From assembly GCF_012295525.1 (NCBI RefSeq), contig NZ_CP051167.1, forward strand, positions 5,621,299 through 5,685,298: a DNA stretch of 64,000 nt, in the 5' to 3' direction. This document shows positions 856 through 25,874 of this stretch, one piece after another (the stretch's first letter is position 1; every line of letters begins with the position of its first letter). The notes beneath the pieces were generated by a model that did not search any database, was not told the DNA's origin, and saw only the letters and a list, made by a program, of their open reading frames with translations. This stretch comes from Oxynema aestuarii AP17 (GTDB lineage: Bacteria > Cyanobacteriota > Cyanobacteriia > Cyanobacteriales > Laspinemataceae). A program made the position numbers and the translations under genes.

Positions 856-1237
856 CTTACCTCCTTCATAATTATATGGACGTAATTGATTGCCCCCACC
901 CAAAACTGAGTGGAACCAACCCGTACCAATCCCCTCCCAAGGAAGCCATCTCTTCACCGTGGCTAAAGTTAGCATTAGTGTGGTCTGGGGTGTACCAGGG
1001 TCGTTCGGAGGAGGACAAATCCCCTAAGCGACGATAAATCGTTTGCCCATTTTCTGAAGGAATTTGACTCAGATTGAGGTCTGCCGTTCCCGCATACCAC
1101 GCTGCTGCTGCTTGATGAGGACCACCTGTGTCTAGATTTTGGTCGAAGTTCGCCCAGGAACCCAAGTTCACATTCCAATCCGCTGTAGACAGTTCTTTGC
1201 CGTTGAGGGTATTATCCGTCCCTTTGTTCTGATAGTA

Positions 1238-2359: not shown

Positions 2360-5054
2360 TAGTTATCCGCATAAGTCACATTGTCCCACACTACCACTTC
2401 CGGATCGAGGACAGTGCTGAAAACGGGTTCTGGAAAAGTCGGGTCGTAATCATACGGATCGATTGTAGTCATTTGGAGGTCGCGATTAGAAGCGTTGGTT
2501 CCCCCAGCATTCGGAAAATACGTCCCCAACCGCTGAATCATTTCCGTATTGACAACCGCACCTTGACCCAATCCAATAAAATGCAATGGCGAGTTAAAAA
2601 TATCTCCTTGGGTACGGATAAGATTGCCATTAGCATCATAAAGACCAGACCCCTCTCCAACTTTACCACCATATTGTTGGTCGAGTTTCACCAAGGAAGC
2701 AAACATTGAATCAGCCGCAGCTTCTGCAAAACCTCCGTTATAGAAACTGCTGGCATCGAGACCCTGCATCCAATCGGCTAACAATACCAGTGGTTTTTCT
2801 TCTATAGGTGTTGTGTTAGTCGCTACCCAACTATTCCCGTTTAAGGTGACAGATTGCCATCCCCCAGTGGAGGGATTGTATTTCATCACCGAACCGCCTG
2901 CTTCTTGAATTTTACTGGCAAGAGCATTAATTTGACTGTTAAGCAAGCGGTTATGTTCTTCATCATTCTGTGGTTCTACACCGCGAGTCAATACCGTCAC
3001 ACTCGTAAACGGACTGGATGAAGGACTTGGCGGTAAGGGAGTTTTAAACTGACTATCCTCAACAACCGGCGTCGGTGAGCCATTAATCACCGCTTCAACC
3101 GCCCAATAATACTCTTGGCCCGCCGTCAACATCCGGTCATCAGGCAGTGTAAATTGGTCTTTAGCACCCGCTTGAGAACCCCCATTCCAAGTCCACACCC
3201 CCTCTTTCCAAGTCGCCGTCAAAATGCGATTCGGATTGTAATCCCTTCCTGGAGTGGGTGAGTCTAATTCCGGCCAAATATCCCTTGGTAACAACCCCTC
3301 CCCTTCAGGAAACACACTTACATAAAGCCTCACCTCTTTTACATCATCCTCGTCAACAGGAGTTGCACAAACATCCGTCTCATCACCCTCCCCATTAAAA
3401 TTCCACTTAAACGTCGGCGTCAAAGTCTCCTCATCAAACACCCCAATCGGATTTTGCAGATTGACAATCGGTCGAGAAGACGCCGTTGCCACACTAAACG
3501 GACTTCCTCCCCCCAAAGAAATCGGCCCGGTGTGAGAATTATTAGGAACTCCATAAGGAATCTTCCTCGTAAAAGAATCGATCGCATTCCCAATATCCTT
3601 AAAATCAGCCGCCAGACTAATAGACGGATTGATATCATCAATCGGCTTCTCCTCAAACACCTCCAGTGGCGTACTATTAACCGTCTGGAGCATCTCCTTC
3701 ACATTAAAAACAAAGGTACTATCAATCCCCGGATAACTCGCCGTCAAATACTTATTATCGCTCGAAAGCGACACCCCATTCGTAAATCCATTGGGAATCG
3801 GTCGCGTCGCCGCCACCAAAGTCGGATTGGGTCCCAAAGCATCCTTAATAATCCCAATATTGCCACCGGCTTTCGAGCCATCCACACTCTCGATTCCACT
3901 GCCAATCATTCGACCATTACGACCTGCAACAAAAGCATAATCCGTGCCACTTTCCTCATCATACATCACCGCCACAGACACCGCTTCATTGACATCAAAA
4001 TAATCGGTCAAACCGCCTAAAGTTAACTGAGCGTAATGAGTAACCGCCTCAAAACTTAGCGGGTCATTATTGAGAATAGTCAGCACACCATACCCTTTTG
4101 GCTCCTCACCCCGGCTAGTAAACACCATCTTCGTAGGGTCGTAAGTAGCCGCCAGTCCTTCCACTCCATAACCCCCTTCAACCCGACCAATTTGTTGATG
4201 CCATTTGCGAGTATTTTGATTGGGGTCAGCCGGATTGTCAGGCCGATCGCGAGGGTCAATATTAAACACTAAAATTTGTCCCCGTCCCGTATCAGACCCC
4301 CCTGGAGTTGTAGCGAACAACCGCGTCCCATCACTGCTCATCGCCAGTTGACGCAAACCCAGACTCGCATTCTCGACTTCAATCGTACCAATGTACTGAT
4401 TGTAAAAATCCGAACTGGGATTGATATCAATAACGTAAATCGCCCCAGTTTTCCAATCCGCCACATAAGCGTATTCATCCCGACTGTCGATCGCAATTGC
4501 ACTGGGAATCGCATGAGAAGGCAAATCAATCCCATTGATTCCTTCCACATTAGGTTGAGCATCCAACTGTTTGAAAGCCGTCAAATCAACGAGAGCCACC
4601 TGTGCCGACTTATTCAGAGTCACATAAGCGCGAGAAGCATTGCTAGTTGCAGCGATAGCTCTCGGTCCATCTTCTCTGTTTGGCGACCCCACAGGAATAT
4701 CCGCTAACAGTAAATCTTTACTATCCGTCTGCGCGATAACTTGTTCCGGATTGAGCGTGTTGACCAGACTAATCGTATCACTTGTCTGACGCGGCACCAT
4801 CGCCATTTCCACACAACCATCAATCGGTATTTTGACCCGTTCCGTTTCCGTTTCCGTTTGAGTATCTATCACTGAATGAGTCGTTCTTTTCAGAGAAACC
4901 TCCGCTTCAGCCAGCGGAACAAAATCCGTCGTTACCGCAATTCGTTCTTGCTCTGGCTGGCTCAAAGGCGCAAGTATAGTACCCGGATAGACTTTACCTC
5001 CCAGGTGGAAATTTACCTCCAAATCATCGAGATTCGTTCCGAAATTACGACCTT

Positions 5055-8000
5055 CTAAATACAACACTCGTCCTTGTTGTTCGTCATACTGAAGTTGGAG
5101 CCGTTCCAGAACGGGTTGAGTATCGGGTACGGGTTGAGTTGGCACATCAAGCACAAGTTCAAGCTCACATTCAGTTCCGTCGTATATGGCAGTCCTACAG
5201 TGGGAATAGTCAATGTAGTCACACTTCTTTCCGACGCATCAAGCAAAACCGGAACTGAAGCCAAAGCCAATGCTCCCGCACCTATTAAACCACCGGGGAC
5301 AAAGTAATCTGGACGGGAATAAGTCAAAGGTGATAGTTTCGGATAGGCTAGTGCTATTCCCCCTACGGCAATCAACCCCAAACCGACGCCAGCACTAAAT
5401 CCGGCCAACCTTAAATGCGCTACAGAATAATCAAATTTGGGAATGGCAATGCTATATTCCCCCGATTCATAAGCACCCCGCCACGGAGGAGAAGTCGTAT
5501 AAATCATCCCATCATCGCCGACAATTCCCGATTCCACCATCGTCCAGATCGGGTGCATCGTCTCACTTCCGACCCATTTATCTCCTTGTTGGAGTGCTGG
5601 GAGTTCCCCTTTGCGAAGGAAAAACACTTCCGTGCCAGGTTCCACCCCAGCAGGTGCCGGAATTGCGAATTGCAACGGGAATTCTAACGGTTGTTCACCA
5701 ATATCTAAGTTAAAGGAGCCAGCGAAGGAGAATTTCTCTGGAATCTCCAAGGAAAGGTTCGATTCCTCAATTTGTCCAATACTGACTGGGGTTTCCTCTG
5801 TTAATGCTCCAGGCGGAACCATCACCATCGCGCCATCATCGGAACGTACTGCACCCCCATTCACTCCAATTGATGCTGTACCGGAAATGGGTTCAACCAC
5901 CCGCACTTCAATCGTTTCCTCTGCTGCACCATGAACCACTGTCACCGTCGCATATCCGGATGACAATGCTGTTATCTTTCCATCTTCAGAAATTCGTACC
6001 ACATTCTCATCGCTGACGTAATAGCGAGTTCCGCTTGCTGCAGCGCTCAAATCGGGAGAATCGCTGAGGGAATTTAACCGTAATTGTAATTGGCGTTTAG
6101 CTCCCGGAACTAAAGTGATAGCATCCGGATAGGGGTCAATTCCTTCAAATTCTGCCAGTGCGACATTAAACTCCGCATCGTTAGTTGGTGTGGGAGTCGC
6201 TCCAATACGAATTGCCGTTACTGCTTCTTCATCCCTGTAAGAGACTCGCACTACGGCGACGCCTTCAGCATTTTTAGCTGTTATCGTTCCATCGCTTTCA
6301 ACGGTTACTAAATCGGGATTGTCAGTGCTGTAGGTTAGTTCGCTGGCGGGGATAACCACCCCTTTGCGATCGGCAAAATTGGCAGTGACGACTAAATTTG
6401 TCGTGCCATCCGATCGCAACTGCACATCGCGCTCCACCACGTCTAAACTCAATAATGGTGCATCGCTAACTTTTACAGTTATGGTCTCATTTACCGACCG
6501 AACGCCGCCATCGTTGGCAACTAAATCGAAACTGGCCGTTCCGACAAAATCCGGAGCCGGTTGGAAAGAAAGAGTTGTGCCATCAGCGAGCAATTCTGCG
6601 GTTCCATTGAGTGCATTGCTGATGTGGTAGGTCACTCGATCGCCATCGGGGTCGGTGACTAACGAGGATAAGTCAATGGTGGCGGGTAAATTAGCACTCA
6701 CCAGAACTGAATCGTTGATGAGAATGGGTGCTTGGTTGGTCAATAAATCCGTGCCATCTTGGAGCAATAATTGCAAGCGACCGTTTTCGTCATAGAAGGC
6801 ATTCGCTCCACTGCGTCCTAATGGATCGAGTACCGAAGTTAAGTAATGGTCGAATGATTGATGGTAATCGAAATGGGTGGTGACGTTATCGCGATCGGTG
6901 ACAGCGACCAAATCACCTTTTTCGTCATATTGATAGCGAATGACTTGGTTATTGAAATCGGTGACGGTATTGATGCGACCTTTAGCATCGCGACCCAATG
7001 CGATCGCTTCTCCGGTGGAACTGAATATTCCAGCGTCAGAGAAGGTTAAGGAATAACCATCGGCGTCAGTAACTTTAAGTAAATCTCCACTTTTTGCATC
7101 AATTTCGGCGACAACTCCTTCTGGAGTGGTCAGGGTGTACTGACCGCCAAATCGTGAATTCTCTGGGTTATAAGGAACGCCTGCTAGGTCATAATAGTTA
7201 CCATCTGGACCTAATATTAGGCGGGTGTCTGGTACGGAAAGGGTCATTCCCGAACCGTTATCAGCAACGAAGGTGGGATGATACCAACGTGCAGCTCCAT
7301 CACCGTACAAACTGAGGAAAGAATTCAGGCGATCGCCGGTGGGTTCAAAGCGGAAGTCGATTCGTTCTCCATCGGGAAGGGTAACGTAAACGCGAGTGTC
7401 GTCAGTGAAGGCATTTTGAATGTCGAGTAATTCTTGCTCGAAACTGGGGGGAGGCACATTGGTTCGCAAGTCGGTATCGACTAATTCCATGCGCCATCCG
7501 TATCCAAAATCATCGGAATCTTCGGCGTTTAAGCTGTCATAAGTCCGAGTCAAAATGATGGGGAAACCTGTAATGGGAATTTCTACTAGATCGTTGAAAG
7601 AAAGGTTGAGGTTGCCTTGTTTTTCTCCACCCACTTCTATCCGCTCTTCTATTGTGGAACCATTGCCTCCTTTATCGTAAGCAGACAAGCGCAATACATA
7701 ACTATCGTTCTGCAAAATTGACGGATCGAAGGTTCCCAACACTCCATCCACAACCGATTCTGTTCCTCGGAAAATTTCTCGGAACTCGCTACTGCCTCCG
7801 GCTGCTACTTCTAGGGTATAATAATCCAAATTTTCATCTTCAACTGTCCCTACAATTTCCAGGGATGCAGTCACTGTTTCATCAAACAGACCCTCTGCTA
7901 ATGCTACCACTGGAGAATCGGGGTCTGAACTATCGATTGCGGTAATTTCTAAGGTGGATTCTGTGACGTTAAAAGCCGCATCATAAGCAACTGCTCGAAC

Positions 8001-10382
8001 CTTAATGTTACCAAATTCCTCTATTTTAATTTTAGCCGTCCCCAACCCGGATAGTTCTACGGGTTCATCATTAATAAAGAGTTGCATTCCGGTAATGCCG
8101 ACATTATCAGTTGCTTGAAGGAAGAAGGTGATTTCCGAGCCGATATCGGCACGATAATCATCATCGACAAGGTACACATTACTCGGCAAGAGTTGAATTT
8201 GGGGTGCTACATTATCTGCTGTAACTGTTAGATTGAAAGTTTGAGTGGCGGTAGTTCCCAACTCATCGATCGCTTCAATAGTTATCGCATGAGTTCCGAC
8301 ATTTTCAACCGTAGGAATCCAACGCAACCGTCCCAACTCATCTACACTCATTCCCAAAGCAATGGAAGCATCATCTAAGCGATAGGTTAAACTGCTACCA
8401 TTCGGGTCGGTTGCTTGAATGTCGTAACTGAACAGGCGATTTGGAATTGCGACAGTAGGCGGTTCATTCGTATTAAAAACGGGAGGTAAATCATTTTGAA
8501 CCGTTAAAGTAAATCCTTGTGCTGCACCCAAACGACCATCATTCACTCCCACCACAACTTGATGAGTGCCAAAAGTAGGAGAATCCCAACGCAGTTCGCC
8601 AGTATTGACATCCAAAGTCATCCCATTGGGAACCGAGATGGGTTGATAAATTAAACCATCATTATCTGCATCAGTTGCTTCAATTTGATAGCGGTAAGGT
8701 ACGCCAGTGGCGGCGAAATATTTGGCGGTGGAGGTAATGACGGGTGGATGGTTAATGGCATCTGACCCGACTTCTATGGTGTAGGTTTGTCGGTTCACTC
8801 CATTTTGGCCGTCAATAACTAACACTTCCACTTCTACCGAACCCGACTGTTGTGCGGTTGGCGTCCAAGTAATCAATCCAGTTTCCGGGTCGATTTGCAT
8901 CCCATCGGGTGCAATTCCCAAACTGTAGCGTCCTCCATCATTTTCGAGGTCAGTGGAAGCGATTTGATAGCGATAATCAGTTCCGACAGCGGCGGCGGTG
9001 ATGGGGACAGAAACAATTTCTGGGGGAGTGTTGATTCCTCGAACTGTGAGGTCAAATTCTTGACCCACAAAATGTCCGGTTGCATCAGTGACGCGAATGG
9101 CAATCGTATGTTCGCCGATTTGGGTGGCGTTGGGTTGCCAAGATAGCATTCCGGAGTTGGGGTCAATAACCATTCCAGAAGGTGCTTTATCTAAAGTCCA
9201 TAACAGCAAATCGCCATCGGGGTCGAATCCAACAAGTTGATATTGATAAACCCGTTCTAAGTTGGTAATTAGATTTGGGGTGGAGGTGATGCTAGGTGCG
9301 CGATTGACAGTTTGATTCGATACATTTAACGTCCAGGATAAAGTGGTAGTATCTTCGCCGTCGTTAACTTCTAGAGAGATAGGATGGGAACCGAATTGAG
9401 AGGGAGTTGGCGTCCAAATGATGCGACCCTGAGAATCCAATTCCATTCCGGCGGGGGATTGAAGGAAGTTGAAGGTTAGGGGGTCGCCATCAGAATCCGT
9501 CAGCGGTAACTGATATAAATAAGTGGAACCGATGCGAACCGAACTGCGGGGGGTGGCGGTAATTTCTGGGGGGGTATTCGGACGCGGTTCGACTACAGTG
9601 GCGGTAATCGTTTGAGATGCTTCTCCACCGAGACTATCAATTGCTTTAACGGTGAATTGAAACTCGCCGGTTTGGGAGGGAGTCCAACGCAGAATGCCAG
9701 TGTCGGGATTGAGGGTAGCGCCAGTTGGGGGATTGACTAACTCGTAACGAATCTCAGCATCGCCATCCGCATCGAGTGCATTGAGACGATATTCAAATAG
9801 TTTACCGCGTTGAGGTTGAATGAATGTGGGTGAAGAGTTGGTAAATGCGGGGAGATTGTTGACAGGTGTCAACTTGACTTGGAACGATTGTAAATCGACT
9901 CCACCTAAATTATCTTGCACTCGCACTAAAACATTATAAACCCCCGAAGCAAGGTAAATACTGTTTGATTCACTCCGTTGGATTACAGTAGGTTTCCAAA
10001 CAATAACTCCAGTTTCGGAATCGATTGTCATTCCCTCTGGTTTTAACGGTAAATCATAAACTAAATTATCAGCATTGGGATCCTTTGCTATAGCGTTATA
10101 CCGAAAGAAACTTGACTCAAAAATCTCAGTGGGCGGAGTGCTGGTGAAACTAGGAGGTAGGTTAGAAGGGGGGTTCTCACGTTCGCCATTGCCAAAGTTG
10201 ATATTTTCTACAACTTGACCCGATTCTAATTTAACTGTATGAGCACGCTCTAATCCAAGAATCTGAGTGACTTTAATGTTATCAATTACCGCTCCATAAC
10301 TATCTCCTACTGTAGAATAAAACTCAATTGTTGTATTGTTACTGTTAGCAGTAAACTGCCAAGTTTGGGGTTGATACTGCAT
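5055..10382 (-). CDS. Giant cell-surface protein fragment (1775 aa). The N-terminal 40 aa are the 3' part of a DUF642 domain. This is followed by about 8-10 cadherin-like/He_PIG Ig repeats, a Big_2 domain, and a Gly/Ala-rich hydrophobic C-terminal region. It is the downstream half of a gene split by the MITE and IS copy 2.
   Basis: The repeats follow the pattern PP.I.S.P…Y.Y.…A.D.D.D.L.Y.L…P.GM.ID..TG.I.W.P. The N-terminus …QTWQFTANSNNTTIEFYSTVGDSYGAVIDNIKV is the conserved C-terminal end of DUF642. Confidence 0.7.
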   Translation of the reverse strand: MQYQPQTWQFTANSNNTTIEFYSTVGDSYGAVIDNIKVTQILGLERAHTVKLESGQVVENINFGNGERENPPSNLPPSFTSTPPTEIFESSFFRYNAIAKDPNADNLVYDLPLKPEGMTIDSETGVIVWKPTVIQRSESNSIYLASGVYNVLVRVQDNLGGVDLQSFQVKLTPVNNLPAFTNSSPTFIQPQRGKLFEYRLNALDADGDAEIRYELVNPPTGATLNPDTGILRWTPSQTGEFQFTVKAIDSLGGEASQTITATVVEPRPNTPPEITATPRSSVRIGSTYLYQLPLTDSDGDPLTFNFLQSPAGMELDSQGRIIWTPTPSQFGSHPISLEVNDGEDTTTLSWTLNVSNQTVNRAPSITSTPNLITNLERVYQYQLVGFDPDGDLLLWTLDKAPSGMVIDPNSGMLSWQPNATQIGEHTIAIRVTDATGHFVGQEFDLTVRGINTPPEIVSVPITAAAVGTDYRYQIASTDLENDGGRYSLGIAPDGMQIDPETGLITWTPTAQQSGSVEVEVLVIDGQNGVNRQTYTIEVGSDAINHPPVITSTAKYFAATGVPYRYQIEATDADNDGLIYQPISVPNGMTLDVNTGELRWDSPTFGTHQVVVGVNDGRLGAAQGFTLTVQNDLPPVFNTNEPPTVAIPNRLFSYDIQATDPNGSSLTYRLDDASIALGMSVDELGRLRWIPTVENVGTHAITIEAIDELGTTATQTFNLTVTADNVAPQIQLLPSNVYLVDDDYRADIGSEITFFLQATDNVGITGMQLFINDEPVELSGLGTAKIKIEEFGNIKVRAVAYDAAFNVTESTLEITAIDSSDPDSPVVALAEGLFDETVTASLEIVGTVEDENLDYYTLEVAAGGSSEFREIFRGTESVVDGVLGTFDPSILQNDSYVLRLSAYDKGGNGSTIEERIEVGGEKQGNLNLSFNDLVEIPITGFPIILTRTYDSLNAEDSDDFGYGWRMELVDTDLRTNVPPPSFEQELLDIQNAFTDDTRVYVTLPDGERIDFRFEPTGDRLNSFLSLYGDGAARWYHPTFVADNGSGMTLSVPDTRLILGPDGNYYDLAGVPYNPENSRFGGQYTLTTPEGVVAEIDAKSGDLLKVTDADGYSLTFSDAGIFSSTGEAIALGRDAKGRINTVTDFNNQVIRYQYDEKGDLVAVTDRDNVTTHFDYHQSFDHYLTSVLDPLGRSGANAFYDENGRLQLLLQDGTDLLTNQAPILINDSVLVSANLPATIDLSSLVTDPDGDRVTYHISNALNGTAELLADGTTLSFQPAPDFVGTASFDLVANDGGVRSVNETITVKVSDAPLLSLDVVERDVQLRSDGTTNLVVTANFADRKGVVIPASELTYSTDNPDLVTVESDGTITAKNAEGVAVVRVSYRDEEAVTAIRIGATPTPTNDAEFNVALAEFEGIDPYPDAITLVPGAKRQLQLRLNSLSDSPDLSAAASGTRYYVSDENVVRISEDGKITALSSGYATVTVVHGAAEETIEVRVVEPISGTASIGVNGGAVRSDDGAMVMVPPGALTEETPVSIGQIEESNLSLEIPEKFSFAGSFNLDIGEQPLEFPLQFAIPAPAGVEPGTEVFFLRKGELPALQQGDKWVGSETMHPIWTMVESGIVGDDGMIYTTSPPWRGAYESGEYSIAIPKFDYSVAHLRLAGFSAGVGLGLIAVGGIALAYPKLSPLTYSRPDYFVPGGLIGAGALALASVPVLLDASERSVTTLTIPTVGLPYTTELNVSLNLCLMCQLNPYPILNPFWNGSNFSMTNNKDECCI

Positions 10383-10386
10383 ATTA

Positions 10387-10487
10387 TAGCATTCCTAAAT
10401 CAGTCGAGTCAGGGCGATCCACCTGAAACCCCTGGGAGTGGGAGCATCTTGCTCCCTACATAGGTTACAAATCATTTAGGATTGCTA
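10387..10487. mobile_element. 101-bp MITE derived from the IS630-family element. It has the same termini (TAGCATTCCTAAAT…ATTTAGGATTGCTA) and is flanked by TA. It shares the TA at 10488-10489 with IS copy 2.
   Basis: Its ends match the IS terminal repeats at 12-13 of 15 positions. The internal about 70 bp are unrelated to the IS interior. A third TA lies at 10385-10386. Confidence 0.7.
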
Positions 10488-10489
10488 TA

Positions 10490-11611
10490 TAGCAGTCCTA
10501 AATGATTCATGGAAGCTTTTTTTGTTATAATATACACGGAAGATTCTCAATATCAGACAGACCTCATGAATATCATAGACGAGCTAGATAATTTCATTGA
10601 AAATACCACAAATACCAAAGAAATGAAGAGAGCATTGGCAGCCAAAATGAAATTATCTGGTCAACCCTCTAAGAAAATTGAAGAAATATTAAATGTTTCT
10701 TCGAGCTTCGTTAGTCAATGGAAAAATAAAGCAATTTTTGAGGGTGTTGAGAGTTTGAATCTTCAATACAAAGGAAGTAAAGGCTATCTAAAACCGGAAG
10801 AAAAAACACAAATCACTTCATGGATAAGACAACAAGAGTATTTGAGATTGTCTGACTTAAAACGATATTTGCAGCAAGAATACAACGTGATTTATTCTTC
10901 AAATCAAAGTTATTATGACTTGCTGAAAGCGGCTGGCATGAGCTGGAAAAAGTCGCAAAAAAAGAATCCAGCCAAAGATGAAAAGCTAGTCAAAAAAAAA
11001 GAAGAAGAAATTCAAAAGAAGCTTAAGGACTGGGAAGAGGATATCAAAGCTGGAAAGCTTGCTGTGTTTATGATTGATGAATGTCATCTTCTTTGGGGAG
11101 ACGTCTTGGGTTTTGTTTGGGGAAGAAAAGATATAAGAGTCGAAATTCCCATTAAAAACCAAAAAAGTCGCCAAAGTTATTATGGCGCTTTAGATTACCA
11201 AACTCATGAATTTATTCTTCAAGAATACCCGAAAGCCGATACCGACAATACCATTCAGTTTATACAATACTTACGAGAACAAAGACCGGGACAAAAATTA
11301 GCCATTTTTTGGGATGGTGCCAGGTATCACGACTCTCAACAATTTCGAGATTTTTTAAAAGAGCTAAATGAAGGCTTAGAAGAAGATGAATGGTTGATTA
11401 CTTGTACGAAGTTTGCTCCGAATGCTCCCGAGCAAAATCCAGTTGAAGATATTTGGCTGCAAACTAAAAATTTCTTGAGAACATTTTATTTTTTATGTGA
11501 TTCATTTAAAAGAGTTAAAGAGCTATTCAAGATATTTGCTGATGGCCAAGTTTTTGATTTCCCTAAGCTATATTCTTATGGATTTTTGCCACAAATGACT
11601 TAGGATTGCTA
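10490..11611 (+). mobile_element. IS630-family insertion sequence, copy 2, identical to copy 1. It is inserted in tandem with the MITE inside a DUF642 domain of the giant gene.
   Basis: The sequence is identical to copy 1, with TA at 10488-10489 and 11612-11613. Confidence 0.85.
10509..11603 (+). CDS. IS630-family transposase (copy 2).
   Basis: The 364-aa ORF is identical to the copy-1 transposase. Confidence 0.8.
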   Translation: MEAFFVIIYTEDSQYQTDLMNIIDELDNFIENTTNTKEMKRALAAKMKLSGQPSKKIEEILNVSSSFVSQWKNKAIFEGVESLNLQYKGSKGYLKPEEKTQITSWIRQQEYLRLSDLKRYLQQEYNVIYSSNQSYYDLLKAAGMSWKKSQKKNPAKDEKLVKKKEEEIQKKLKDWEEDIKAGKLAVFMIDECHLLWGDVLGFVWGRKDIRVEIPIKNQKSRQSYYGALDYQTHEFILQEYPKADTDNTIQFIQYLREQRPGQKLAIFWDGARYHDSQQFRDFLKELNEGLEEDEWLITCTKFAPNAPEQNPVEDIWLQTKNFLRTFYFLCDSFKRVKELFKIFADGQVFDFPKLYSYGFLPQMT

Positions 11612-14600
11612 TATTTTTATTGCCACTACCAATCCCTACAAATTCTGCCGACTGACCAGCTGCGGTTACAGTCATTGGTCTTTCGCTTCCTGCAGCAAGA
11701 AAACCATGAGCTGATAAGTCAAAAGTTACGAGGTAATCTTCGCCAGGAATAGTGTTAATCGTTTGTTTAATTCCCCCCGGACCTGGTGTACCATCAAGGT
11801 CAATACTATAATCACCATCAGAGGCTTGCCATAAACCTGTACCACAATGATCGACCGACCTCAGCATCACGTCCCAGCCTTCAAGTGTAGTCGAATTATA
11901 TCTTACTATTGTCCATGAATTTTTCGGGGCTGGTCCTCTTTCAAAACTCCCATTCTGAATTAAGTTTTCACCGATCGCCGGACTTAATAAAGGAAAGGTT
12001 TGTTCTAAACTAGAGGGAACTATTTCTCGAATCGTATAGGTATCCGCTGTCAAATTGGTAAATTGATAGGAGCCGGTTTCGTCTGTTAAAGGAGTGGCGG
12101 GATTATCTGTACTTGTTTTTGTGCTTGGTTCCTCAACATCTAACCTTCCATTATTATTCAAATCTAAATAAATTTCTACTCCAGCTAGTCCACTTTCTTC
12201 TGGGTCGAAAACACTGTTTTTATTAGAATCTAACCATTTAATTCCGCGAATTTCCCCTAAATCCGTCTGGTGGGCAACACTCAATTGAAAAATCTGAGTA
12301 TCAATTCCACCCTGAGTATCTTGCACCTCAACCGCAATCTCATATTCTCCCACATTGTCATCGGTTAAGTCGTTCCAACGAATTTCTCCAGTAATTGGGT
12401 CAACCGTCATTCCATCGGGAGGATTCACCAAGGAATAAGTCAGTTGGTCGTTTTCAGGGTCGAGCGCTCGGACTGAATAAAGATAATCGCTCCCCACATT
12501 GACTCGTTGTGAGGGTTCGCTAATAATAATTGGTGCGTAGTTCCCAGGCTTTTCTTGGATTAAAATATTGAAGGATTGCGTTACTTTTCCACCCCTGCCA
12601 TCTTCGGCATTCAGCGTTACTTTCTGTAAGCCTAGTTGTTGGGTATTGGGTTGCCAAGTTAAGGTTTGAGTTTCGGAATCAAAACTCATTCCTTCGGGCG
12701 CATTCATAACAGAAAAAGTCAGTTTATCCCTATCTGGGTCAGTAGCACTAATTTGATAGCGATACGGTTGATTGATATAAGCATCCACCACCGGCGTGGA
12801 CGTGAATATAGGGGGTCGATTCGGCGGAATTTCCGTCACTGACAGGGTAAAGCTTTGAACGTCTTTCCCCCCACGAGAATCCACTACCTCTACAACAACA
12901 GCATGAGTTCCAATCTCCTCAACCGTCGTCTCCCAAGTTATCACCCCAGTTTCTGAGTCAATTATCATCCCATTGGGAGCTGATAATAACGAATAACTCA
13001 ACCCATCATTATTCGCATCTTTGGCAATAACTTCATACCGATAAGAATTCCCTCCAATCGCTTCTAGTGGCGGTTTGCTTTCGATAACCGGGTCAGCATT
13101 TAACTGTCCAAGTACCGCCAATTCATAAGTAAATTGAACTCGATTGGGGTTGAAGAAGGTTAGCGAACCCAACTCAGTTATTTCAGTCGGGTCTAACTTT
13201 CCATCCTCGGCCAATTCAGAGAAATTATAATACGGCACTCCTTCTGGGGTAAATCCATCTGGGTTGCGCAGTAAAACTGTGGGGTCACTGATATTAGAAA
13301 CCGCCACCAATAAAGGCCCATCTACGCTATAATTGCCTTCATTGCGAATGGCAACTTCCGCATACAGTTCGTTGCTACTTTCATCAAAGCGGGTGCTTCT
13401 GTATTCTAAGGGGTTTGAAGGCGTAATATCAGTCAGCTTGCCAAACTCGGCTAACTCAATCGGCTGACTGCGATGATTGTCTTCACCGCTACTGACTGGC
13501 GGTTGTTGCTGAGTGCTTCCCACCAAGTTCAGGTTGCGGATGCTGACTGAGGTAGTCGTGTCGCGATCGCCATTCACCAATCGCAATACTAAATTAGCAC
13601 TTCCCGGACTCACCCCATTCAAATTGAGCGTCACCGTACCCGTACTTTCATTATATTCAACGCCAGCGGCTAATTTCGGTTCTTCCCCTTCGGTTAAATT
13701 AAAGAAAGCATCTCCCGAACCAATGGTATGCACCAAAGAATTCCCTTCTGCATCCAAAAGAGCGACTTCAAACGCATCGTTAATTGCATTACTATCGCTC
13801 CTGTCGAAATTGAGTGCAGCCAATGTAAAGACTAACTGAGAAGAAGTCTGTGGAATAGTCAATTCTTCTCGATGACTGACTGAAAAGTTTTCCCCTTCTA
13901 CCAAAACGATATCATCAACATTGCTAACTTCTGTGCGAGTAATGATGCGACTGGTAACGGTGGAATTGCCTGCGTCGTCAAGGGTTTGAATGGTAAAGGA
14001 ATTTTCCCCAACAGTAAGGTCAATTCCTGCAAAAGAGAATTGTCCCGTTGTATCCGCCGTGACGGTTGTGCCGGTTTCGATTAAAGTGACGGTAGCATTG
14101 GGTTCTGTCGTCCCTGTCAGGGTTACAGGTGATGCAGCGGTTTGAGCGTCGCCAGGGATATCGGTGTCGGATGCGGGGTCTAAGTCAAATGTCAGCGGAG
14201 GCGCGGTGGTATCTAGGGTAAAGTCATACTGGTACTCGGTAATGTTTCCCCATTCGTCAATGGCCTGCAAGTATAATGTGTGAGAGCCATCGGGGAGTGA
14301 ATCGCCGTAAATGGTGGCAAGTTGGGAAGGGGTGAGGGTAAAGTCGCCGGTTTCTAAAAGTTGCGAGTCAATGTTGATGAAGGAAGAGTTGTCAAAACTG
14401 GCAGTAAAACTAACAATGTGGAGAGGGTTGGTGAGAGTGCCAGTAATAGTCGGGTTGTAGGTTTTGCGATCGCTATCGGATATGCCAGTATCTTCTGCAA
14501 GTTTTGCGGTGATGATGGGAGACTGGTTGTTCTGTTCTGCGTAAGAAACGATTTGCTGTCCAATTTCAGAATTGCGCCAATCTGAATCGGGAGCAATCAC

Positions 14601-15146
14601 TTCATCCAGGTTAGTCACGATTCCGGTTGCAGCTGACATTTTGAAGGTGATATCGTTAAAGTCGGCATCCCCTCCAGGCAACCGTAAATCTTCCCAGGCA
14701 AATAAGTTCCCATCTCCAGTGACATCAACGAGTTGAGGTTGATGCAACGCTCGTTCCGGGTCACTGGGAGTTAACGAAAGGAAGGGTTTTTTGCTGCCAG
14801 TAACTTGCGGATTGTCAAAGAGTTCTTGGAGGGTGCCGTCAGGAATTAAAATTAAGCCAAATTCTGTTCCTTCCGGTAAAGAGAAAGTTTTCTCTCCTGA
14901 TTTGATGCCACGATTCCAATTGTAAGCTTCCAATTTTCCATCGAGTTTAGCCGCTTCTGTGGAGTCGGATATCAGAACATAACCTTCGTCGGAATTGGAG
15001 AGAGAACGTCTAGCGATTTCTTGGAAGAATTCAGCAGACCCCCATTCATATTCCGAGAGTCCAGCCATATTGAACAAACCGACAGTGCCTTGATAATAGC
15101 CGCCATCGAAGATGTATTCGATGTTAATAGAGCCAGTTTCTCCCAC
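11568..15146 (-). CDS. Giant cell-surface protein, upstream half (annotated from GTG at 15146). It contains a DUF4114 domain, He_PIG/cadherin-like Ig repeats, an SdrD-B-like domain, and the N-terminal two-thirds of a DUF642 domain that is truncated by IS copy 2. The last 8 codons come from the IS end. The same frame stays open upstream to about 16304 with no canonical start codon, across an acidic S/T/E/D repeat region.
   Basis: The DUF4114 motif is …DGGYYQGTVGLF…DLRLPGGDADFNDITF. SdrD-B is …GIKWLDSNKNSVFDPEESGLAGVEIYLD. DUF642 is LIQNGSFERGP…DYSIDLDG…YLVTFDLSAHG. By manual translation I found no stop in frame from 15147 to about 16304. Confidence 0.7.
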   Translation of the reverse strand: MGETGSINIEYIFDGGYYQGTVGLFNMAGLSEYEWGSAEFFQEIARRSLSNSDEGYVLISDSTEAAKLDGKLEAYNWNRGIKSGEKTFSLPEGTEFGLILIPDGTLQELFDNPQVTGSKKPFLSLTPSDPERALHQPQLVDVTGDGNLFAWEDLRLPGGDADFNDITFKMSAATGIVTNLDEVIAPDSDWRNSEIGQQIVSYAEQNNQSPIITAKLAEDTGISDSDRKTYNPTITGTLTNPLHIVSFTASFDNSSFINIDSQLLETGDFTLTPSQLATIYGDSLPDGSHTLYLQAIDEWGNITEYQYDFTLDTTAPPLTFDLDPASDTDIPGDAQTAASPVTLTGTTEPNATVTLIETGTTVTADTTGQFSFAGIDLTVGENSFTIQTLDDAGNSTVTSRIITRTEVSNVDDIVLVEGENFSVSHREELTIPQTSSQLVFTLAALNFDRSDSNAINDAFEVALLDAEGNSLVHTIGSGDAFFNLTEGEEPKLAAGVEYNESTGTVTLNLNGVSPGSANLVLRLVNGDRDTTTSVSIRNLNLVGSTQQQPPVSSGEDNHRSQPIELAEFGKLTDITPSNPLEYRSTRFDESSNELYAEVAIRNEGNYSVDGPLLVAVSNISDPTVLLRNPDGFTPEGVPYYNFSELAEDGKLDPTEITELGSLTFFNPNRVQFTYELAVLGQLNADPVIESKPPLEAIGGNSYRYEVIAKDANNDGLSYSLLSAPNGMIIDSETGVITWETTVEEIGTHAVVVEVVDSRGGKDVQSFTLSVTEIPPNRPPIFTSTPVVDAYINQPYRYQISATDPDRDKLTFSVMNAPEGMSFDSETQTLTWQPNTQQLGLQKVTLNAEDGRGGKVTQSFNILIQEKPGNYAPIIISEPSQRVNVGSDYLYSVRALDPENDQLTYSLVNPPDGMTVDPITGEIRWNDLTDDNVGEYEIAVEVQDTQGGIDTQIFQLSVAHQTDLGEIRGIKWLDSNKNSVFDPEESGLAGVEIYLDLNNNGRLDVEEPSTKTSTDNPATPLTDETGSYQFTNLTADTYTIREIVPSSLEQTFPLLSPAIGENLIQNGSFERGPAPKNSWTIVRYNSTTLEGWDVMLRSVDHCGTGLWQASDGDYSIDLDGTPGPGGIKQTINTIPGEDYLVTFDLSAHGFLAAGSERPMTVTAAGQSAEFVGIGSGNKNIAILSHLWQKSIRI

Positions 15147-16249
15147 TTGGAAAACCCCTTGGGAGAAGTTGGGGAAGGTTGGTTCGATTTCAGTAGGTAC
15201 GGTTTGAGCAACAACGTTGATGGTGAGGGAGTTGCTGTCGGATGGGGAGTCGTTATCTTCTAGAACAACTGATGCAGTTTCTCCGGAATCTGATGTAGAT
15301 TCGGTTGGATTGGATGTAGCGGGTGGAGCGGAGGGTTTAATTGCGGACGATTCGGTTTGAGATGAGTTGGGTCCTGAAGTGGGATCGATAATGAATTCGG
15401 TTGAAGCTGATGAAGTTGTCGAGGCTACTAAGTCTTCTTCAGCTAAATCGAGAGGTTCATCCTCATCTGAGTTGAAATCTGTGTCATCTGTGGTTAAAGA
15501 TGAGGAATTTGTTTCGGTTGAATCGAGTGAAGATTCTTCTGAATCTGGGGTCTCTTCTGCACTAGCAGGGGTGGTTGCTGAGTCGGACGAGGCAGGAGAT
15601 TCAGCCAGTATATCCTCATCCGATTGAAGAGCATTGGATGTTTCTTCTTCGCTGCTTTCATCCGCAAATTCTGTCGAATCAACTGTATCGGAGTTGGACT
15701 GGATTGAGGAGGAAGTTTCTAAGTTGGATTCTGTCGCTTCAACTGTGTCGGAGTCTGATACCGTTGAAGTTTCATCAGGAGATTCGGTCGGTTCGGATGT
15801 TTCAGTTGAAATCGAACTGGATTCTGTTAAATTGGATGTATCGGAGTCGCTAAGGATTGACGGTGAGGTTTCGGTTGAAACTGACGTGGATTCTACTCCG
15901 TTGTTGGGGTCGTCCGGTAAGAGAATGGACGATTCAGTTTCTTCAGGAATTGAAGTGAATTCAGTCGGCTCAACTGTTGTCTCATCAGATAGGAGAGTTT
16001 CTGATTCAGTTTCTTCGGGAATTGAGGTAGATTCTACCCCGTTGTCAGTGCTATCAATGTCAAGGTTTGACTCTACGGTTGAATCGTCCGCCGCTATTTC
16101 ATCACCATTCGGTTCTAACCCGTCAATTGTTTCTGAAACTTCGTCTGAAGCGCTTTCTGGGGTCGATTGAAGTAAAGCGGATTGTTCTTGGACGTAGGTG
16201 ATTATTTCTTGTCCGCTGGGAGTCGTGCGCCAGTCTAAATTAGGATTAA

Positions 16250-17119
16250 TTAATTCATCAAGGACTGTGGCGGTTCCGGTAGCTCCAAATAGGAAAAGAT
16301 GAGGTCATTGTAGTCGAGATCGCTTCCCACATCAACTCGCAAGTCTTCCATGACAAACAAATTGCCCTCTCCGGTGACATCAGCAATTTGTCCCACATGA
16401 AAGGCATCTTCTGGGTTGGCGGTGGCGAGGGAAAATAAAGGTCGTTTGTTCCCAGTCAATTCCGGATTTTCTTGAACTTCTTCGATTGTCCCATTGGGAA
16501 CAAGGATGATGCCAAATTTATCTCCAGGCTGCATCAAGAAGGTTTTGTTTCCTTCGTGTTTTCCCCAATTAAAATTGGTGGCTTCTTCTAAATCTCCGGT
16601 AAATTTGGCGGCTTCATTGGCGTCAGAGATGACGATATAACCTTGTTCGGAATGACTTAGCGCTCTTTTGGCAGCTTCTTTAATAAATTCTGCACTTCCC
16701 GGGACAAATTCTTCCATCCCGGTTAAACTGAAGATACCAATTTCACTTTGGTAAGCACCACCATCGTAGAGGAATTCGATGTTGACTTGTCCAGTATTGC
16801 CTACGACAAATATTCCAGATGTGAAGTCGGTATTTTGGACGGATGGAAGTGCTTCGCCGGTGAGGGGATCTATTGGAGAGTTGTTATCTGAACTGGGGAG
16901 TATGCTCGACTCAATATTATTAACTGATACTCCGTCGGTCAGCGAGGTGTCCTCAACTCCATATTGAGAGTTTATTGGGAATAACTCGCTACCAGTTGGC
17001 GGAGATTCTAATGGCTTTATTGGGTTGTTAAATGGGTCTACGGGATTGTCAACTAACCCGGATATTAAGGGGTCTCCCTGCGAGTCAGGAAATAACGATT
17101 CATTGTTTAAAATTTGCAT
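16250..17119 (-). CDS. DUF4114-domain protein (289 aa). It is a paralogue of the DUF4114 domain at the start of ORF 11568..15146. It is probably the true 5' end of the giant gene, separated from the long downstream frame by a -1 frame change within 16253-16304.
   Basis: …GQVNIEFLYDGGAYQSEIGIF…GNLFVMEDLRVDVGSDLDYNDLIF matches the downstream DUF4114 domain. The stop at 16250 overlaps the open downstream frame. Confidence 0.6.
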   Translation of the reverse strand: MQILNNESLFPDSQGDPLISGLVDNPVDPFNNPIKPLESPPTGSELFPINSQYGVEDTSLTDGVSVNNIESSILPSSDNNSPIDPLTGEALPSVQNTDFTSGIFVVGNTGQVNIEFLYDGGAYQSEIGIFSLTGMEEFVPGSAEFIKEAAKRALSHSEQGYIVISDANEAAKFTGDLEEATNFNWGKHEGNKTFLMQPGDKFGIILVPNGTIEEVQENPELTGNKRPLFSLATANPEDAFHVGQIADVTGEGNLFVMEDLRVDVGSDLDYNDLIFSYLELPEPPQSLMN

Positions 17120-17320
17120 GACGAGTTTCCATCCGTGCTTGTAGTTTAGATGGTGCTGCGTCCTGGCTTTTTTTGTAAAAAGTAGGATGCTCTAAGCGAA
17201 TTTTAAAAAACTTGAAAACTAATTTAACAACTCTATGCAATTTCCCTATCCGCACTTTTACTGAAGTTTTTAAGTTTTTTTGGGGAAGTTTTTGCCTAGG
17301 CTGTGTAAACTTTTCAGTAT

Positions 17321-17350
17321 TTTTACTTAGTTTTACTTAATTTTACTTAG
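17321..17350. repeat. Three tandem copies of a 10-bp unit (TTTTACTTAG/TTTTACTTAA/TTTTACTTAG) in the AT-rich region upstream of the giant gene.
   Basis: Read directly from the sequence. Confidence 0.7.
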
Positions 17351-18088
17351 GTTTAGCAATTAATTTGATACAATCTTTCTTTATAGAATGGGCTTTTGAA
17401 TGAATTTTAATCCTTGTAAATTAATGCAAAAAAAGTGACGAAAAACTGTTTTTGCCTGGGAAAAACATTGTTTTTGAGTAAGAATACTGATTTGGTTATA
17501 CAGAATACAGGAGTAGTGAGGGAAGGGGGATTTAATCGGGACGGTGGAGTTGGAGGGGTTGATGAGGGAGCCACAACCAAAGCGAAAAAGTTGGTGAGGG
17601 TAGCGCCAGGGGCGTCGCTCCCGTTCAGGAACGATTCCAGTTGCGAGCGCGAGGTTCGCTTCGGATCGCCATACCCGATCCCACATCAGTGTGCTTGTTA
17701 GTAGGCAGTTTCAGTTTTTCTTTGCCCGCGATGCTCCCCATCCCTGATTGCCAGCAACTATACCGGCAGGAACTGAAAACAGCAGCTTGTGTTAGGCGAT
17801 CGCAATCAGCTTGGACGACAAGAGCGCGATTAGAGGTCAAGCCAGTTTCCCAAATCCTTCCTTCCCCAGATAAGGCAAGCATGGATGGGTTGAACACAAG
17901 TCGGGCCAAAAATAATCGGAGACTTTTGGATAAACTGCCACAACGCATTCGGACAAGACAGAGCGATCGCCATCGCATAAAAATGGAGCAACCCTTGCGC
18001 TGTAAGGCTGCGAGGCTCCCGACGAGTTTGGGTGGGTTCAGCGATTTTGGTTGAGCCTCGCAACAGGGGTGGCAACCGTGGAAAGGAA

Positions 18089-18412
18089 TCACCAAAAATC
18101 TAGCTGGATCTGTGTCGGCGGGTCGAACTCGCCGGTTACCCGAGAGCAGATAGCCGGACCATACAGCTTTAACAGCCGGAGCAAATCCTCCAACTCTTCT
18201 CGGGTCATTGCGAATTTAGTAGGTTTCCCATAGCGGCGCTTGATGAATCCTCGCAACTCAGCCTTATCCAGCCCTTCAGCCGCCAGTTTGAGAAACAAAG
18301 CGTGGGCCAATTTCAGCAGTTCGTGGGAAGTCAGTTCGGTTGATGTTAGCTGGTCGGTGGGAGTCGCCACCTTGACCTTGCCAGCCAGAATCCGCACCAG
18401 CGATCGCAACAT
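18089..18412 (-). CDS. Hypothetical small protein (107 aa), probably mobile-element-associated. Iteron-like direct repeats lie in its upstream region.
   Basis: Supported only by the ORF and its context. It has no recognisable domain. Confidence 0.35.
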   Translation of the reverse strand: MLRSLVRILAGKVKVATPTDQLTSTELTSHELLKLAHALFLKLAAEGLDKAELRGFIKRRYGKPTKFAMTREELEDLLRLLKLYGPAICSRVTGEFDPPTQIQLDFW

Positions 18413-18448
18413 GGGAGTGGGGAGATGATTGCGATTGAAGTCAGCTGC

Positions 18449-18613
18449 TAAATTAAATGTCGTCTTGCCAAATTAATATCGCTGAACTTGATAGACAGCA
18501 ATCCCTCTGTGCATAAAGGTTCAGGCTATTTTTACACGAGGACCCACCCCAAACTAGGCTTGACAAATTAAATGTCGTCTTTTGTAATTTTGACCAATTA
18601 GATGTCGTTTCTT
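18449..18613. promoter_or_regulatory. Iteron-like direct repeats: AAATTAAATGTCGTCTT twice (18449, 18565) and CCAATTAGATGTCGTTTCTT once (18594).
   Basis: The units were found by eye. They lie upstream of the minus-strand ORF 18089..18412 and next to IS copy 3. Confidence 0.45.
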
Positions 18614-18733
18614 GTAAAAGGTATTGGCAAGCGATTGTAAGTAGGCTTCTTCTGCGCCATCGGCAACTGTTTAATCATTAATCAGATAACTGCCGAAACC
18701 GTGGGAGAAGCACCGACAAACTGATTGATGCTA

Positions 18734-19855
18734 TAGCAGTCCTAAATGATTCATGGAAGCTTTTTTTGTTATAATATACACGGAAGATTCTCAATATCAG
18801 ACAGACCTCATGAATATCATAGACGAGCTAGATAATTTCATTGAAAATACCACAAATACCAAAGAAATGAAGAGAGCATTGGCAGCCAAAATGAAATTAT
18901 CTGGTCAACCCTCTAAGAAAATTGAAGAAATATTAAATGTTTCTTCGAGCTTCGTTAGTCAATGGAAAAATAAAGCAATTTTTGAGGGTGTTGAGAGTTT
19001 GAATCTTCAATACAAAGGAAGTAAAGGCTATCTAAAACCGGAAGAAAAAACACAAATCACTTCATGGATAAGACAACAAGAGTATTTGAGATTGTCTGAC
19101 TTAAAACGATATTTGCAGCAAGAATACAACGTGATTTATTCTTCAAATCAAAGTTATTATGACTTGCTGAAAGCGGCTGGCATGAGCTGGAAAAAGTCGC
19201 AAAAAAAGAATCCAGCCAAAGATGAAAAGCTAGTCAAAAAAAAAGAAGAAGAAATTCAAAAGAAGCTTAAGGACTGGGAAGAGGATATCAAAGCTGGAAA
19301 GCTTGCTGTGTTTATGATTGATGAATGTCATCTTCTTTGGGGAGACGTCTTGGGTTTTGTTTGGGGAAGAAAAGATATAAGAGTCGAAATTCCCATTAAA
19401 AACCAAAAAAGTCGCCAAAGTTATTATGGCGCTTTAGATTACCAAACTCATGAATTTATTCTTCAAGAATACCCGAAAGCCGATACCGACAATACCATTC
19501 AGTTTATACAATACTTACGAGAACAAAGACCGGGACAAAAATTAGCCATTTTTTGGGATGGTGCCAGGTATCACGACTCTCAACAATTTCGAGATTTTTT
19601 AAAAGAGCTAAATGAAGGCTTAGAAGAAGATGAATGGTTGATTACTTGTACGAAGTTTGCTCCGAATGCTCCCGAGCAAAATCCAGTTGAAGATATTTGG
19701 CTGCAAACTAAAAATTTCTTGAGAACATTTTATTTTTTATGTGATTCATTTAAAAGAGTTAAAGAGCTATTCAAGATATTTGCTGATGGCCAAGTTTTTG
19801 ATTTCCCTAAGCTATATTCTTATGGATTTTTGCCACAAATGACTTAGGATTGCTA
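18734..19855 (+). mobile_element. IS630-family insertion sequence, copy 3, identical to copies 1 and 2, with TA duplications at 18732-18733 and 19856-19857. It is inserted in non-coding DNA.
   Basis: The sequence is identical to the other copies. Confidence 0.85.
18753..19847 (+). CDS. IS630-family transposase (copy 3).
   Basis: The 364-aa ORF is identical to the other two transposases. Confidence 0.8.
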   Translation: MEAFFVIIYTEDSQYQTDLMNIIDELDNFIENTTNTKEMKRALAAKMKLSGQPSKKIEEILNVSSSFVSQWKNKAIFEGVESLNLQYKGSKGYLKPEEKTQITSWIRQQEYLRLSDLKRYLQQEYNVIYSSNQSYYDLLKAAGMSWKKSQKKNPAKDEKLVKKKEEEIQKKLKDWEEDIKAGKLAVFMIDECHLLWGDVLGFVWGRKDIRVEIPIKNQKSRQSYYGALDYQTHEFILQEYPKADTDNTIQFIQYLREQRPGQKLAIFWDGARYHDSQQFRDFLKELNEGLEEDEWLITCTKFAPNAPEQNPVEDIWLQTKNFLRTFYFLCDSFKRVKELFKIFADGQVFDFPKLYSYGFLPQMT

Positions 19856-25864: not shown

Positions 25865-25874
25865 GGTTTTTTTA

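Follow-up and report, generated by a model that had tools for sequence, protein, structure and literature searches.

Background

The insertion sequences (IS) of the IS630 family, within the IS630/Tc1/mariner superfamily, are about 1.1 kb long, code for a single DDE transposase with an N-terminal helix-turn-helix, end in imperfect terminal inverted repeats and duplicate a TA dinucleotide on insertion. Cyanobacteria also carry Nezha, a MITE, or miniature inverted-repeat transposable element, related to IS630 (Zhou et al. 2008), which the summary in PMC3184786 describes as a short non-coding element of about 130-170 bp with IS630-type terminal repeats and direct-repeat flanks, its mobility being deduced from filled and empty sites. 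Polymorphic toxins are defined by variable C-terminal toxin domains and cassette recombination, and include a Tox-NucA class (Zhang et al. 2012, PMC3482391). NucA of Anabaena (PDB 1zm8; NucA-NuiA complex, 2o3b) is a secreted enzyme and is small, with about 240-260 residues. These known systems meet in a 64,000-nucleotide stretch, in the following the window, of the 6,357,750-bp chromosome CP051167 of the cyanobacterium Oxynema aestuarii AP17 (contig NZ_CP051167.1, positions 5,621,299 to 5,685,298). Very probably, positions 17119..1 of its minus strand are the remains of one giant polymorphic-toxin-like gene, now a pseudogene broken by transposons and frameshifts.

The gene is broken in five places: by a MITE and an IS copy in tandem (IS copy 2), by a further copy of the same IS (IS copy 1) and by three frameshifts. 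A first-pass annotation of the window had proposed that two open reading frames (ORFs) are one gene cut inside a DUF642 domain by the tandem. Excision in silico, Pfam search and homologue alignment agreed with this proposal. The implied repair by one excision did not hold, there being four further lesions in the gene. The feature is ordinary in kind, belongs to known kinds and does not overturn current understanding.

One gene split inside a DUF642 domain

Both ORFs are read on the minus strand, 11568..15146 (1,192 aa, GTG start) and 5055..10382 (1,775 aa, ATG start). Between them the plus strand reads TA, MITE, TA, IS, TA (coordinates in Table 1). Excision of 10387..11613, with one TA kept, yielded a single open frame from 16304 to 5058 with 3,340 codons and no stop, which held both ORFs in frame and read ...GIGSGNKNNMQYQPQTWQFTANSNN... 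across the junction; the codon phase was preserved as the first-pass annotation had stated. The upstream half alone matched the Pfam profile of DUF642, also called choice-of-anchor C (PF04862), with 50.9 bits over profile positions 1-107 of 157, and the match stopped at the junction. The rejoined sequence scored 80.7 bits over positions 1-156 of 157 (cut-off 27), so that the predicted completion of the domain was borne out by the profile search.

A homologue search with the rejoined region covered 5.8 billion proteins. Uninterrupted homologues shared the local architecture of SdrD_B, DUF642 and He_PIG; the best were a JGI metagenome fragment (P0016, 65% identity, the closest one) and a protein from a Rivularia metagenome-assembled genome (MAG; P0017). 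Both were continuous and collinear over the junction, with zero indels there. In the alignment of the window with five homologues, 35 invariant columns were common to all and the junction was free of gaps. Among the homologues, the methionine with which the 1,775-aa ORF seems to start is invariant and lies within DUF642. Its ATG at 10382 lies just past the left end of the MITE, which begins at 10387, as had been noted at first reading. The upstream ORF had been read as ending eight codons into the IS; it actually runs 13 codons and a stop into IS copy 2. Both ORFs belong to a single gene, which a TA-targeted tandem of a MITE and an IS630-family element has split inside DUF642. This is more than a chance arrangement, since the three IS copies in the window are identical and TA-flanked, the homologues align without a gap and the start methionine of the downstream ORF is internal to DUF642.

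The IS630-family element

The 1,122-bp element is an IS630-family IS that differs from the family in nothing of kind. Its transposase matched the NCBIfam equivalog model NF033545 for IS630 with 164.8 bits (cut-off 100, profile 1-288 of 299), and Pfam identified DDE_3 and HTH_33. The terminal inverted repeats, TAGCAGTCCTAAATGATT / TAGCAATCCTAAGTCATT, are imperfect, with 14 of the first 18 end positions matching. Identity among the three copies in the window is 100% over 1,122 bp, and all have the same orientation. The same 1,122 bp recurred, between TA dinucleotides, at two other sites of the 6.31-Mb JGI genome of a conspecific strain (Ga0573901_01) and in two short contigs; each of the five copies checked, three of them in the window and two in the JGI genome, had a TA at either end.

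Filled and empty sites could be compared for two copies. The site of copy 1 is empty, with a single TA, in a contig of Phormidium sp. CCY1219 (L001), within DNA 100% identical to the window. Copy 3 is missing in the conspecific JGI genome (L127) and in a Logan contig (L128), where the exact empty site reads GTCGCTATAGCATC; this intergenic copy, upstream of the giant gene, is from the same recent burst as copies 1 and 2. The identity of the copies, together with the missing insertion in a 99.95%-identical genome, indicates recent IS630 activity in Oxynema aestuarii. A rearrangement mediated by the IS at copy 1 was considered when a first BLAST comparison gave a step in identity to Phormidium from 84.5% to 99.8% exactly at the IS. 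The idea was dropped after a comparison in sliding windows of 100 nt, in which identity was 100% on both sides of copy 1 (2451..1), as for a simple insertion.

The 101-bp element and the origin of the tandem

The 101-bp element ends in TAGCATTCCTAAAT...ATTTAGGATTGCTA, compared with TAGCAGTCCTAAAT...CTTAGGATTGCTA in the IS; depending on the pair compared, 14-18 of the first 20 positions agree (20-base comparison, left ends). Genomes of cyanobacteria contained at least 120 stretches with the pattern of repeat, gap of 60-90 nt and repeat, and TA was present on both sides in 111 of the 120 pattern matches listed. The pattern has 26 specified bases and 596 Gb were scanned, for which we estimated a chance expectation of about 0.02 matches. 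The IS-like ends and the widespread TA-flanked pattern of repeat, gap and repeat justify the label IS630-type MITE. The window has one copy, and O. aestuarii was absent from the 80 titled loci among the at least 120 pattern matches listed. Part of the MITE interior is common to elements in Phormidium sp. CCY1219 and in an Oscillatoria MAG (89% over about 55 nt). By description, as summarised in PMC3184786, Nezha is the closest described cyanobacterial class: both are short and non-coding with IS630-type terminal repeats and direct-repeat flanks, and in both mobility follows from filled and empty sites, whereas the AP17 element is shorter than Nezha, the comparison being one of description and not of sequence.

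The arrangement TA-MITE-TA-IS-TA had been ascribed to two sequential insertions. The arrangement stands and two events are the likelier origin, any order of the two being conjecture. Two successive TA-targeted insertions are likelier than one composite because no MITE adjoins the other IS copies: none of six examined (two in the window, two in the JGI genome, two in short contigs) had one as a neighbour.

True start, true end and the frameshifts

The first-pass annotation had put the gene at more than 3,300 codons. This agrees with the 3,340 open codons on excision, but the whole gene is longer at both ends, with approximately 5,196 codons. Upstream of the 1,192-aa ORF the frame is open over 16304..15147, as had been described, and these 386 codons contain neither ATG nor GTG nor TTG, so the frame cannot begin there. 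They code mostly for a linker rich in Ser, Glu, Thr and Asp (S 22%, E 15%, T 14%, D 11%). The ORF 16250..17119 (289 aa) contains the first DUF4114 (Pfam, 80.7 bits) and is annotated by NCBI as a separate protein, QIZ73033.1. In a protein of Laspinema olomoucense (P0002), residues 1-276 aligned to 17119..16292 (92%) and residues 277-1636 to 16292..12138 in another frame (85%); a protein of Phormidium sp. CCY1219 (P0003) spans frameshift 1 in the same way. On the DNA level, CCC and an open frame were present in the Laspinema locus L002 (95.6% over 5.65 kb), the JGI genome (99.4%) and the Logan contig (99.9%). Four relatives read through 16292-3, namely Laspinema olomoucense, Phormidium sp. CCY1219, the JGI conspecific and the Logan contig. 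By these alignments the real gene starts at the ATG at 17119, the ORF 16250..17119 being its true N-terminus.

Near the downstream end of the 1,775-aa ORF, the best join at frameshift 2 was ...GLPYTTELNV followed by ELELVLDVPTQPVPD.... P0003 aligned in frame -3 (6221..5160) and then in frame -2 (5127..4588), and P0085, P0087 and P0136 behaved alike. The next ORF, 2311..5154, is annotated by NCBI as a 947-aa 'YncE family protein' (P0076) and ends inside IS copy 1. Excision of 1238..2361 produced an open frame from 5238 to 875, and the homologues P0077, P0078, P0079 and P0087 were collinear through the site of IS copy 1 and frameshift 3. The last segment of the gene in the window was 100% identical to residues 858-1171 of P0077.

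Five minimal repairs (addition of a C at 16292, one base re-read near 5165, removal of T944 and the two excisions) gave 4,923 codons in the window without a stop, the frame continuing past the window start. Adding the 273-aa tail of P0077 brings the reconstruction to about 5,196 aa, with Endonuclease_NS (PF01223, 84.9 bits) at the C-terminus. An independent comparison was provided by the finished plasmid pOSCIL6304.02 of Oscillatoria acuminata PCC 6304, which has a single ORF of 2,875 aa. Residues 857-2867 of this ORF corresponded to residues 3224-5195 of the reconstruction, with 44% identity over 2,098 aa in one frame, and the alignment spanned frameshift 2, the site of IS copy 1, frameshift 3 and the nuclease. 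The extension of the gene at the 3' end is independently confirmed by the O. acuminata ORF. The 947-aa ORF was also considered as a gene of its own, like standalone homologues of about 1,700 aa such as P0078 of Okeania; this was ruled out, as P0087, P0085, P0136, P0003 and the O. acuminata ORF include sequence from upstream of frameshift 2.

The main value of the finding lies in annotation: at least five fragments called separately in CP051167 make up a gene of about 5,200 codons and ought to be entered as one pseudogene. The 289-aa, 1,192-aa and 947-aa ORFs are exact NCBI proteins, named 'DUF4114', 'putative Ig domain' and 'YncE family', and the 1,775-aa ORF and the 3' remainder belong to the same pseudogene.

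Table 1. Features of the giant gene and its mobile elements in the O. aestuarii AP17 window, in the direction of transcription of the gene; IS copy 3, outside the gene, stands first
Feature	Position	Strand	Basis or content
IS630-family copy 3, intergenic, upstream of the giant gene, not interrupting it	18734..19855	+	
Segment 1, start ATG 17119-17117, N-terminal region and first DUF4114 (16534..16292)	16292..17119	-	
Frameshift 1, 1-nt deletion (CC vs CCC in relatives), frame shift -1	16292..16293	-	
Segment 2	11614..16291	-	linker ~16170..15147; DUF4114 14879..14631; Ig-like/He_PIG; SdrD_B 12239..11997; DUF642 11966..11614 (N-terminal two thirds of the domain)
TA target-site copy right of IS copy 2	11612..11613	.	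direct reading
IS630-family copy 2, 1,122 bp, transposase ORF 10509..11603 (+, 364 aa)	10490..11611	+	NF033545, Pfam
TA between MITE and IS	10488..10489	.	direct reading
MITE, 101 bp, ORF-free	10387..10487	.	terminal repeats like IS
TA left of MITE, copy kept on excision	10385..10386	.	direct reading
Segment 3	5165..10386	-	DUF642 C-terminal third 10386..10269; seven He_PIG; weak DUF6531; RHS 6989..6885
Segment 3, rest		-	Big_9/cadherin-like 6737..6468; Big_2 6035..5916; hydrophobic stretch
Frameshift 2 zone, frame -3 to -2, placed to a zone, not to a nucleotide	5125..5180	-	homologue alignments
Segment 4, lactonase/YncE-like beta-propeller 4689..4309 and conserved region	2362..5164	-	
IS630-family copy 1, TA at 1236-7 and 2360-1, separates segments 4 and 5	1238..2359	+	
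Segment 5	945..1237	-	homologue alignment
Frameshift 3, extra T (GCTTCC vs GCTCC in Phormidium sp. CCY1219)	944	-	
Segment 6, leaves the window start; Endonuclease_NS (NucA-like) from ~112; ~273 codons beyond the window	1..943	-	

Architecture of the predicted protein

The reconstructed protein begins with DUF4114, an acidic linker, a second DUF4114, Ig-like/He_PIG domains, SdrD_B, DUF642 and seven He_PIG, and continues with RHS repeats, Big_9/Big_2, a hydrophobic stretch, the beta-propeller and about 900 aa of conserved sequence before it closes with a NucA-like DNA/RNA non-specific endonuclease. The domains listed at first reading were found again by Pfam, with DUF4114, SdrD_B, He_PIG (3 + 7 stretches) and Big_2. 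The C-terminal domain of P0077 matched Anabaena NucA (PDB 1zm8 and 2o3b) with E = 5e-17; the nuclease domain is homologous, yet here it would close a protein of about 5,200 aa instead of being a small secreted enzyme. Among homologues that have the conserved region of about 1,300 aa in common, the C-terminal domain is Endonuclease_NS in P0077 and P0078 and ART-PolyVal in P0087 and P0099. Downstream of the O. acuminata giant gene, past two pentapeptide-repeat genes, is a gene for an 837-aa 'DNA/RNA non-specific endonuclease' (L158 11649..13001, NC_019694.1 34648..37161) with 58% identity to residues 4339-4776 of the reconstruction, which looks like an orphan C-terminal toxin cassette. In Phormidium (L001) the gene is followed by an unannotated ORF of 151 aa on the opposite strand. 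A PDB sequence search with the 1,775-aa ORF had no match, and look-ups of the exact products of P0003, P0001 and a CyRepA1 ORF of the window found nothing on record.

With the polymorphic toxins (PMC3482391) the gene shares the giant multi-domain protein, the RHS and Ig-like repeats, the C-terminal NucA-like nuclease, the swapping of Endonuclease_NS and ART-PolyVal among homologues, the orphan cassette in a relative and a mosaicism in the style of recombination. It differs in that neither a recognised trafficking domain of the type V, VI or VII secretion systems (T5SS, T6SS, T7SS) nor a releasing peptidase was identified, and in having a large beta-propeller and the conserved region of about 900 aa before the toxin, as well as an N-terminus of DUF4114 in place of a known secretion module. 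As judged from its domains, the product looks as if it worked like a polymorphic toxin, with incomplete membership in the class, and we infer that its role would be that of a secreted toxin. Elsewhere in the window, and not next to the giant gene, a gene for a two-partner-secretion transporter of the ShlB/FhaC type (POTRA_2 and ShlB; 43940..48360, minus strand) overlaps the beginning of a gene for a TPR-CHAT protein.

The ancestral protein would have consisted of a long surface-display stalk, a conserved pre-toxin region and an exchangeable C-terminal toxin domain. In AP17 the gene is inactivated. The TA-duplicating IS630-family element entered it at two TA targets, one inside DUF642 and the other inside the conserved C-terminal region, and a MITE with the same kind of terminal repeats occupies the TA adjoining the IS copy in DUF642, which gives the present tandem. 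Three single-base frameshifts probably add to the inactivation.

Alternative explanations

Several observations weigh against a single toxin-like pseudogene and concern the comparators, the protein and the assembly. No close comparator exists for the middle section of the AP17 allele, where the nearest relative has 65% identity; this is also the value of the best uninterrupted homologue at the junction of the MITE and IS copy 2. A degenerate junction pattern (GNKNNMQYQPQTW) had no match in metagenome contigs, that is, no near-identical empty site was found, and a protein-guided metagenome scan for the junction allele returned just He_PIG repeats and one DUF642 match of 33%. The conspecific JGI genome was tried as an empty-site control and set aside, its allele departing from AP17 at about 12727 before the junction is covered. 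The window does not reach the last 273 codons, the stop codon or a possible immunity gene. Marker domains of T5SS, T6SS and T7SS were absent from the Pfam scan, in which the N-terminus showed DUF4114 only, and no obvious signal peptide was seen by eye in the N-terminal sequence. In AP17 just two RHS_repeat stretches (40 bits) and a weak DUF6531 match were detected; for the conspecific JGI allele, TEN_YD-shell and several RHS repeats are listed. The chance that the ORFs 11568..15146 and 5055..10382 have always been two genes with a coincidental in-frame fit is negligible: nothing beyond the present annotation speaks for it, while a DUF642 cut at profile position 107 is restored to near full length, the junction aligns without gaps to uninterrupted homologues, and the upstream ORF stops only by reading into the IS. 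It is very improbable that the fragments are alive as separately expressed products, for instance an N-terminal adhesin in truncated form and, further downstream, a protein transcribed from a hybrid promoter at the MITE end. The site in question, at 10412..10383 (minus strand), is promoter-like by consensus match only (CTGACT-18-TATAAT with an upstream TG), is composed of the MITE end, the TA duplication and gene sequence, and abuts the ATG at 10382; in addition, three of the fragments are annotated as proteins by NCBI. However, with the -10 box abutting the ATG a transcript would start inside the ORF, the product would start with a third of a beta-sandwich and have no export signal, frameshift 2, IS copy 1 and frameshift 3 break up the downstream fragments in their turn, and the number of promoter-like sites in the region was not significantly above that in shuffled sequences (8 vs 4.3 +/- 2.4). 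A transfer of MITE, TA and IS as one composite of 1,225 bp, through the outer MITE end and the outer IS end, is improbable as well. These outer ends form a compatible pair of terminal repeats and TA flanks the whole unit on both sides, but the other IS copies have no adjoining MITE, and the internal TA is the expected leftover of two successive TA-duplicating insertions into the same or a duplicated TA.

The remaining alternative accepts a single interrupted gene, with the mobile elements as the sole interruptions and the three frameshifts as consensus errors, which would reduce the lesions from six to three (two IS, one MITE). We consider this a distinct possibility, although not the expected one. 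The AP17 genome was assembled with Canu from PacBio Sequel continuous long reads (CLR) only and was not polished with short reads (PMC7595944); frameshifts 1 (CCC to CC) and 3 (T to TT) are length changes of short runs, typical of residual CLR errors, and sit in sequence otherwise 99.4-100% identical to relatives. The long-contig JGI assembly has a private insertion of one nucleotide (+A) in the same gene, at L127 13805, corresponding to 14610 of the window, where AACCTGG became AACACTGG; it splits that allele into 839 and 5,687 aa and is not shared by AP17, which is intact there. Frameshifts are then either building up in the two strains alike, or the giant gene contains errors in both long-read assemblies. 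On the other side, a coverage of about 1,300x (our own calculation from the subread figures of the announcement) should leave very few errors, and frameshift 2 is outside any obvious homopolymer. The 14.8 kb of the giant gene contain three frameshifts, compared with none in about 30 kb of other coding sequence of the window (Poisson P = 0.002, Fisher p = 0.035); twenty other genes of the window had end-to-end domain matches, and the 9.7-kb flank shared with the JGI genome showed no coding indel, its single indel, at 20101, being in an intergenic G-run (GGGGGGGAGG vs GGGGGGGGG). Such clustering is predicted by relaxed selection after IS insertion. On balance, the frameshifts are probably real mutations and not errors of the PacBio consensus. 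All lesions look recent, because the IS copies are identical and copy 3 is missing in the 99.95%-identical genome, copy 1 and frameshift 3 lie in DNA otherwise identical to Phormidium, and a contig of 99.9% identity lacks frameshift 1. After its isolation the strain underwent subculturing at intervals of 15-21 days (PMC7595944), a regime that, we infer, would favour IS bursts and the decay of a dispensable weapon.

Mosaic origin and neighbouring genes

The allele is composed of parts with different closest relatives. The stretch 12727..18737, comprising the promoter region, an upstream ORF of 107 aa and the first 4.4 kb of the gene, was 99.4% identical to the conspecific JGI locus, 95.6% to Laspinema L002 and 92.5% to O. 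acuminata L157. All three relatives part from AP17 further downstream. For two of them the break falls in a He_PIG repeat, at about 12727-12757; the JGI allele, which shares the 4.4 kb of the 5' part and diverges at about 12727, continues with PPC-like repeats in a 5,687-aa ORF. At the other end, 2451..1 (about 2.45 kb) was 100% identical to Phormidium sp. CCY1219 L001 apart from C/A at 697 and the extra T at 944; the coordinates noted in L001 for the shared 3' module are 2300..3535. Further upstream identity to Phormidium falls stepwise and is mostly 40-67% beyond about 3235. This pattern suggests a very recent exchange of the toxin end between genera.

The O. acuminata locus lies beside ParM on the mobilisable plasmid pOSCIL6304.02, and the Laspinema locus adjoins a ParM-like gene. 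The O. acuminata orthologue is cut after codon 466 by a different IS630-family element (L157 10566..11938; NC_019694.1 ~21,790-23,163), to which the AP17 IS has no DNA similarity. Judging from these sites, IS630-type elements have hit the giant-gene family independently, twice in AP17 and once in O. acuminata. Tentatively, and with more doubt than confidence, the loci could be members of a plasmid-associated family, so far undescribed, of giant polymorphic toxins from cyanobacteria, about 2,900 to about 6,500 aa in length, with a DUF4114 N-terminus, a conserved beta-propeller pre-toxin module, interchangeable NucA/ART tips, intergeneric exchange of 5' and 3' modules at 95-100% DNA identity and repeated IS630 insertion. 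If this were true, the repeated independent insertions could stem from selection for the silencing of a weapon that is costly or harmful to its owner, and not from random decay. The locus is a clean case of modular exchange in a giant toxin-like gene among Oxynema, Laspinema, Oscillatoria and Phormidium, partly plasmid-borne, and may be of interest for interbacterial antagonism in mat-forming cyanobacteria.

An ORF of the CyRepA1 plasmid replication family (20963..25882, minus strand, 1,639 aa; 276 bits vs a cut-off of 200) is located 4 kb upstream of the giant gene. This part of the AP17 chromosome may have come from a plasmid that integrated, given this gene, the plasmid-borne orthologous locus in O. 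acuminata and the ParM-like neighbour in Laspinema. The small gene directly upstream (18412..) was examined as a possible further fragment on account of a 177-aa call in Laspinema. This was rejected, since the extra C-terminus of the Laspinema call resembles read-through into non-coding sequence, and two other assemblies call this same product of 107 aa.

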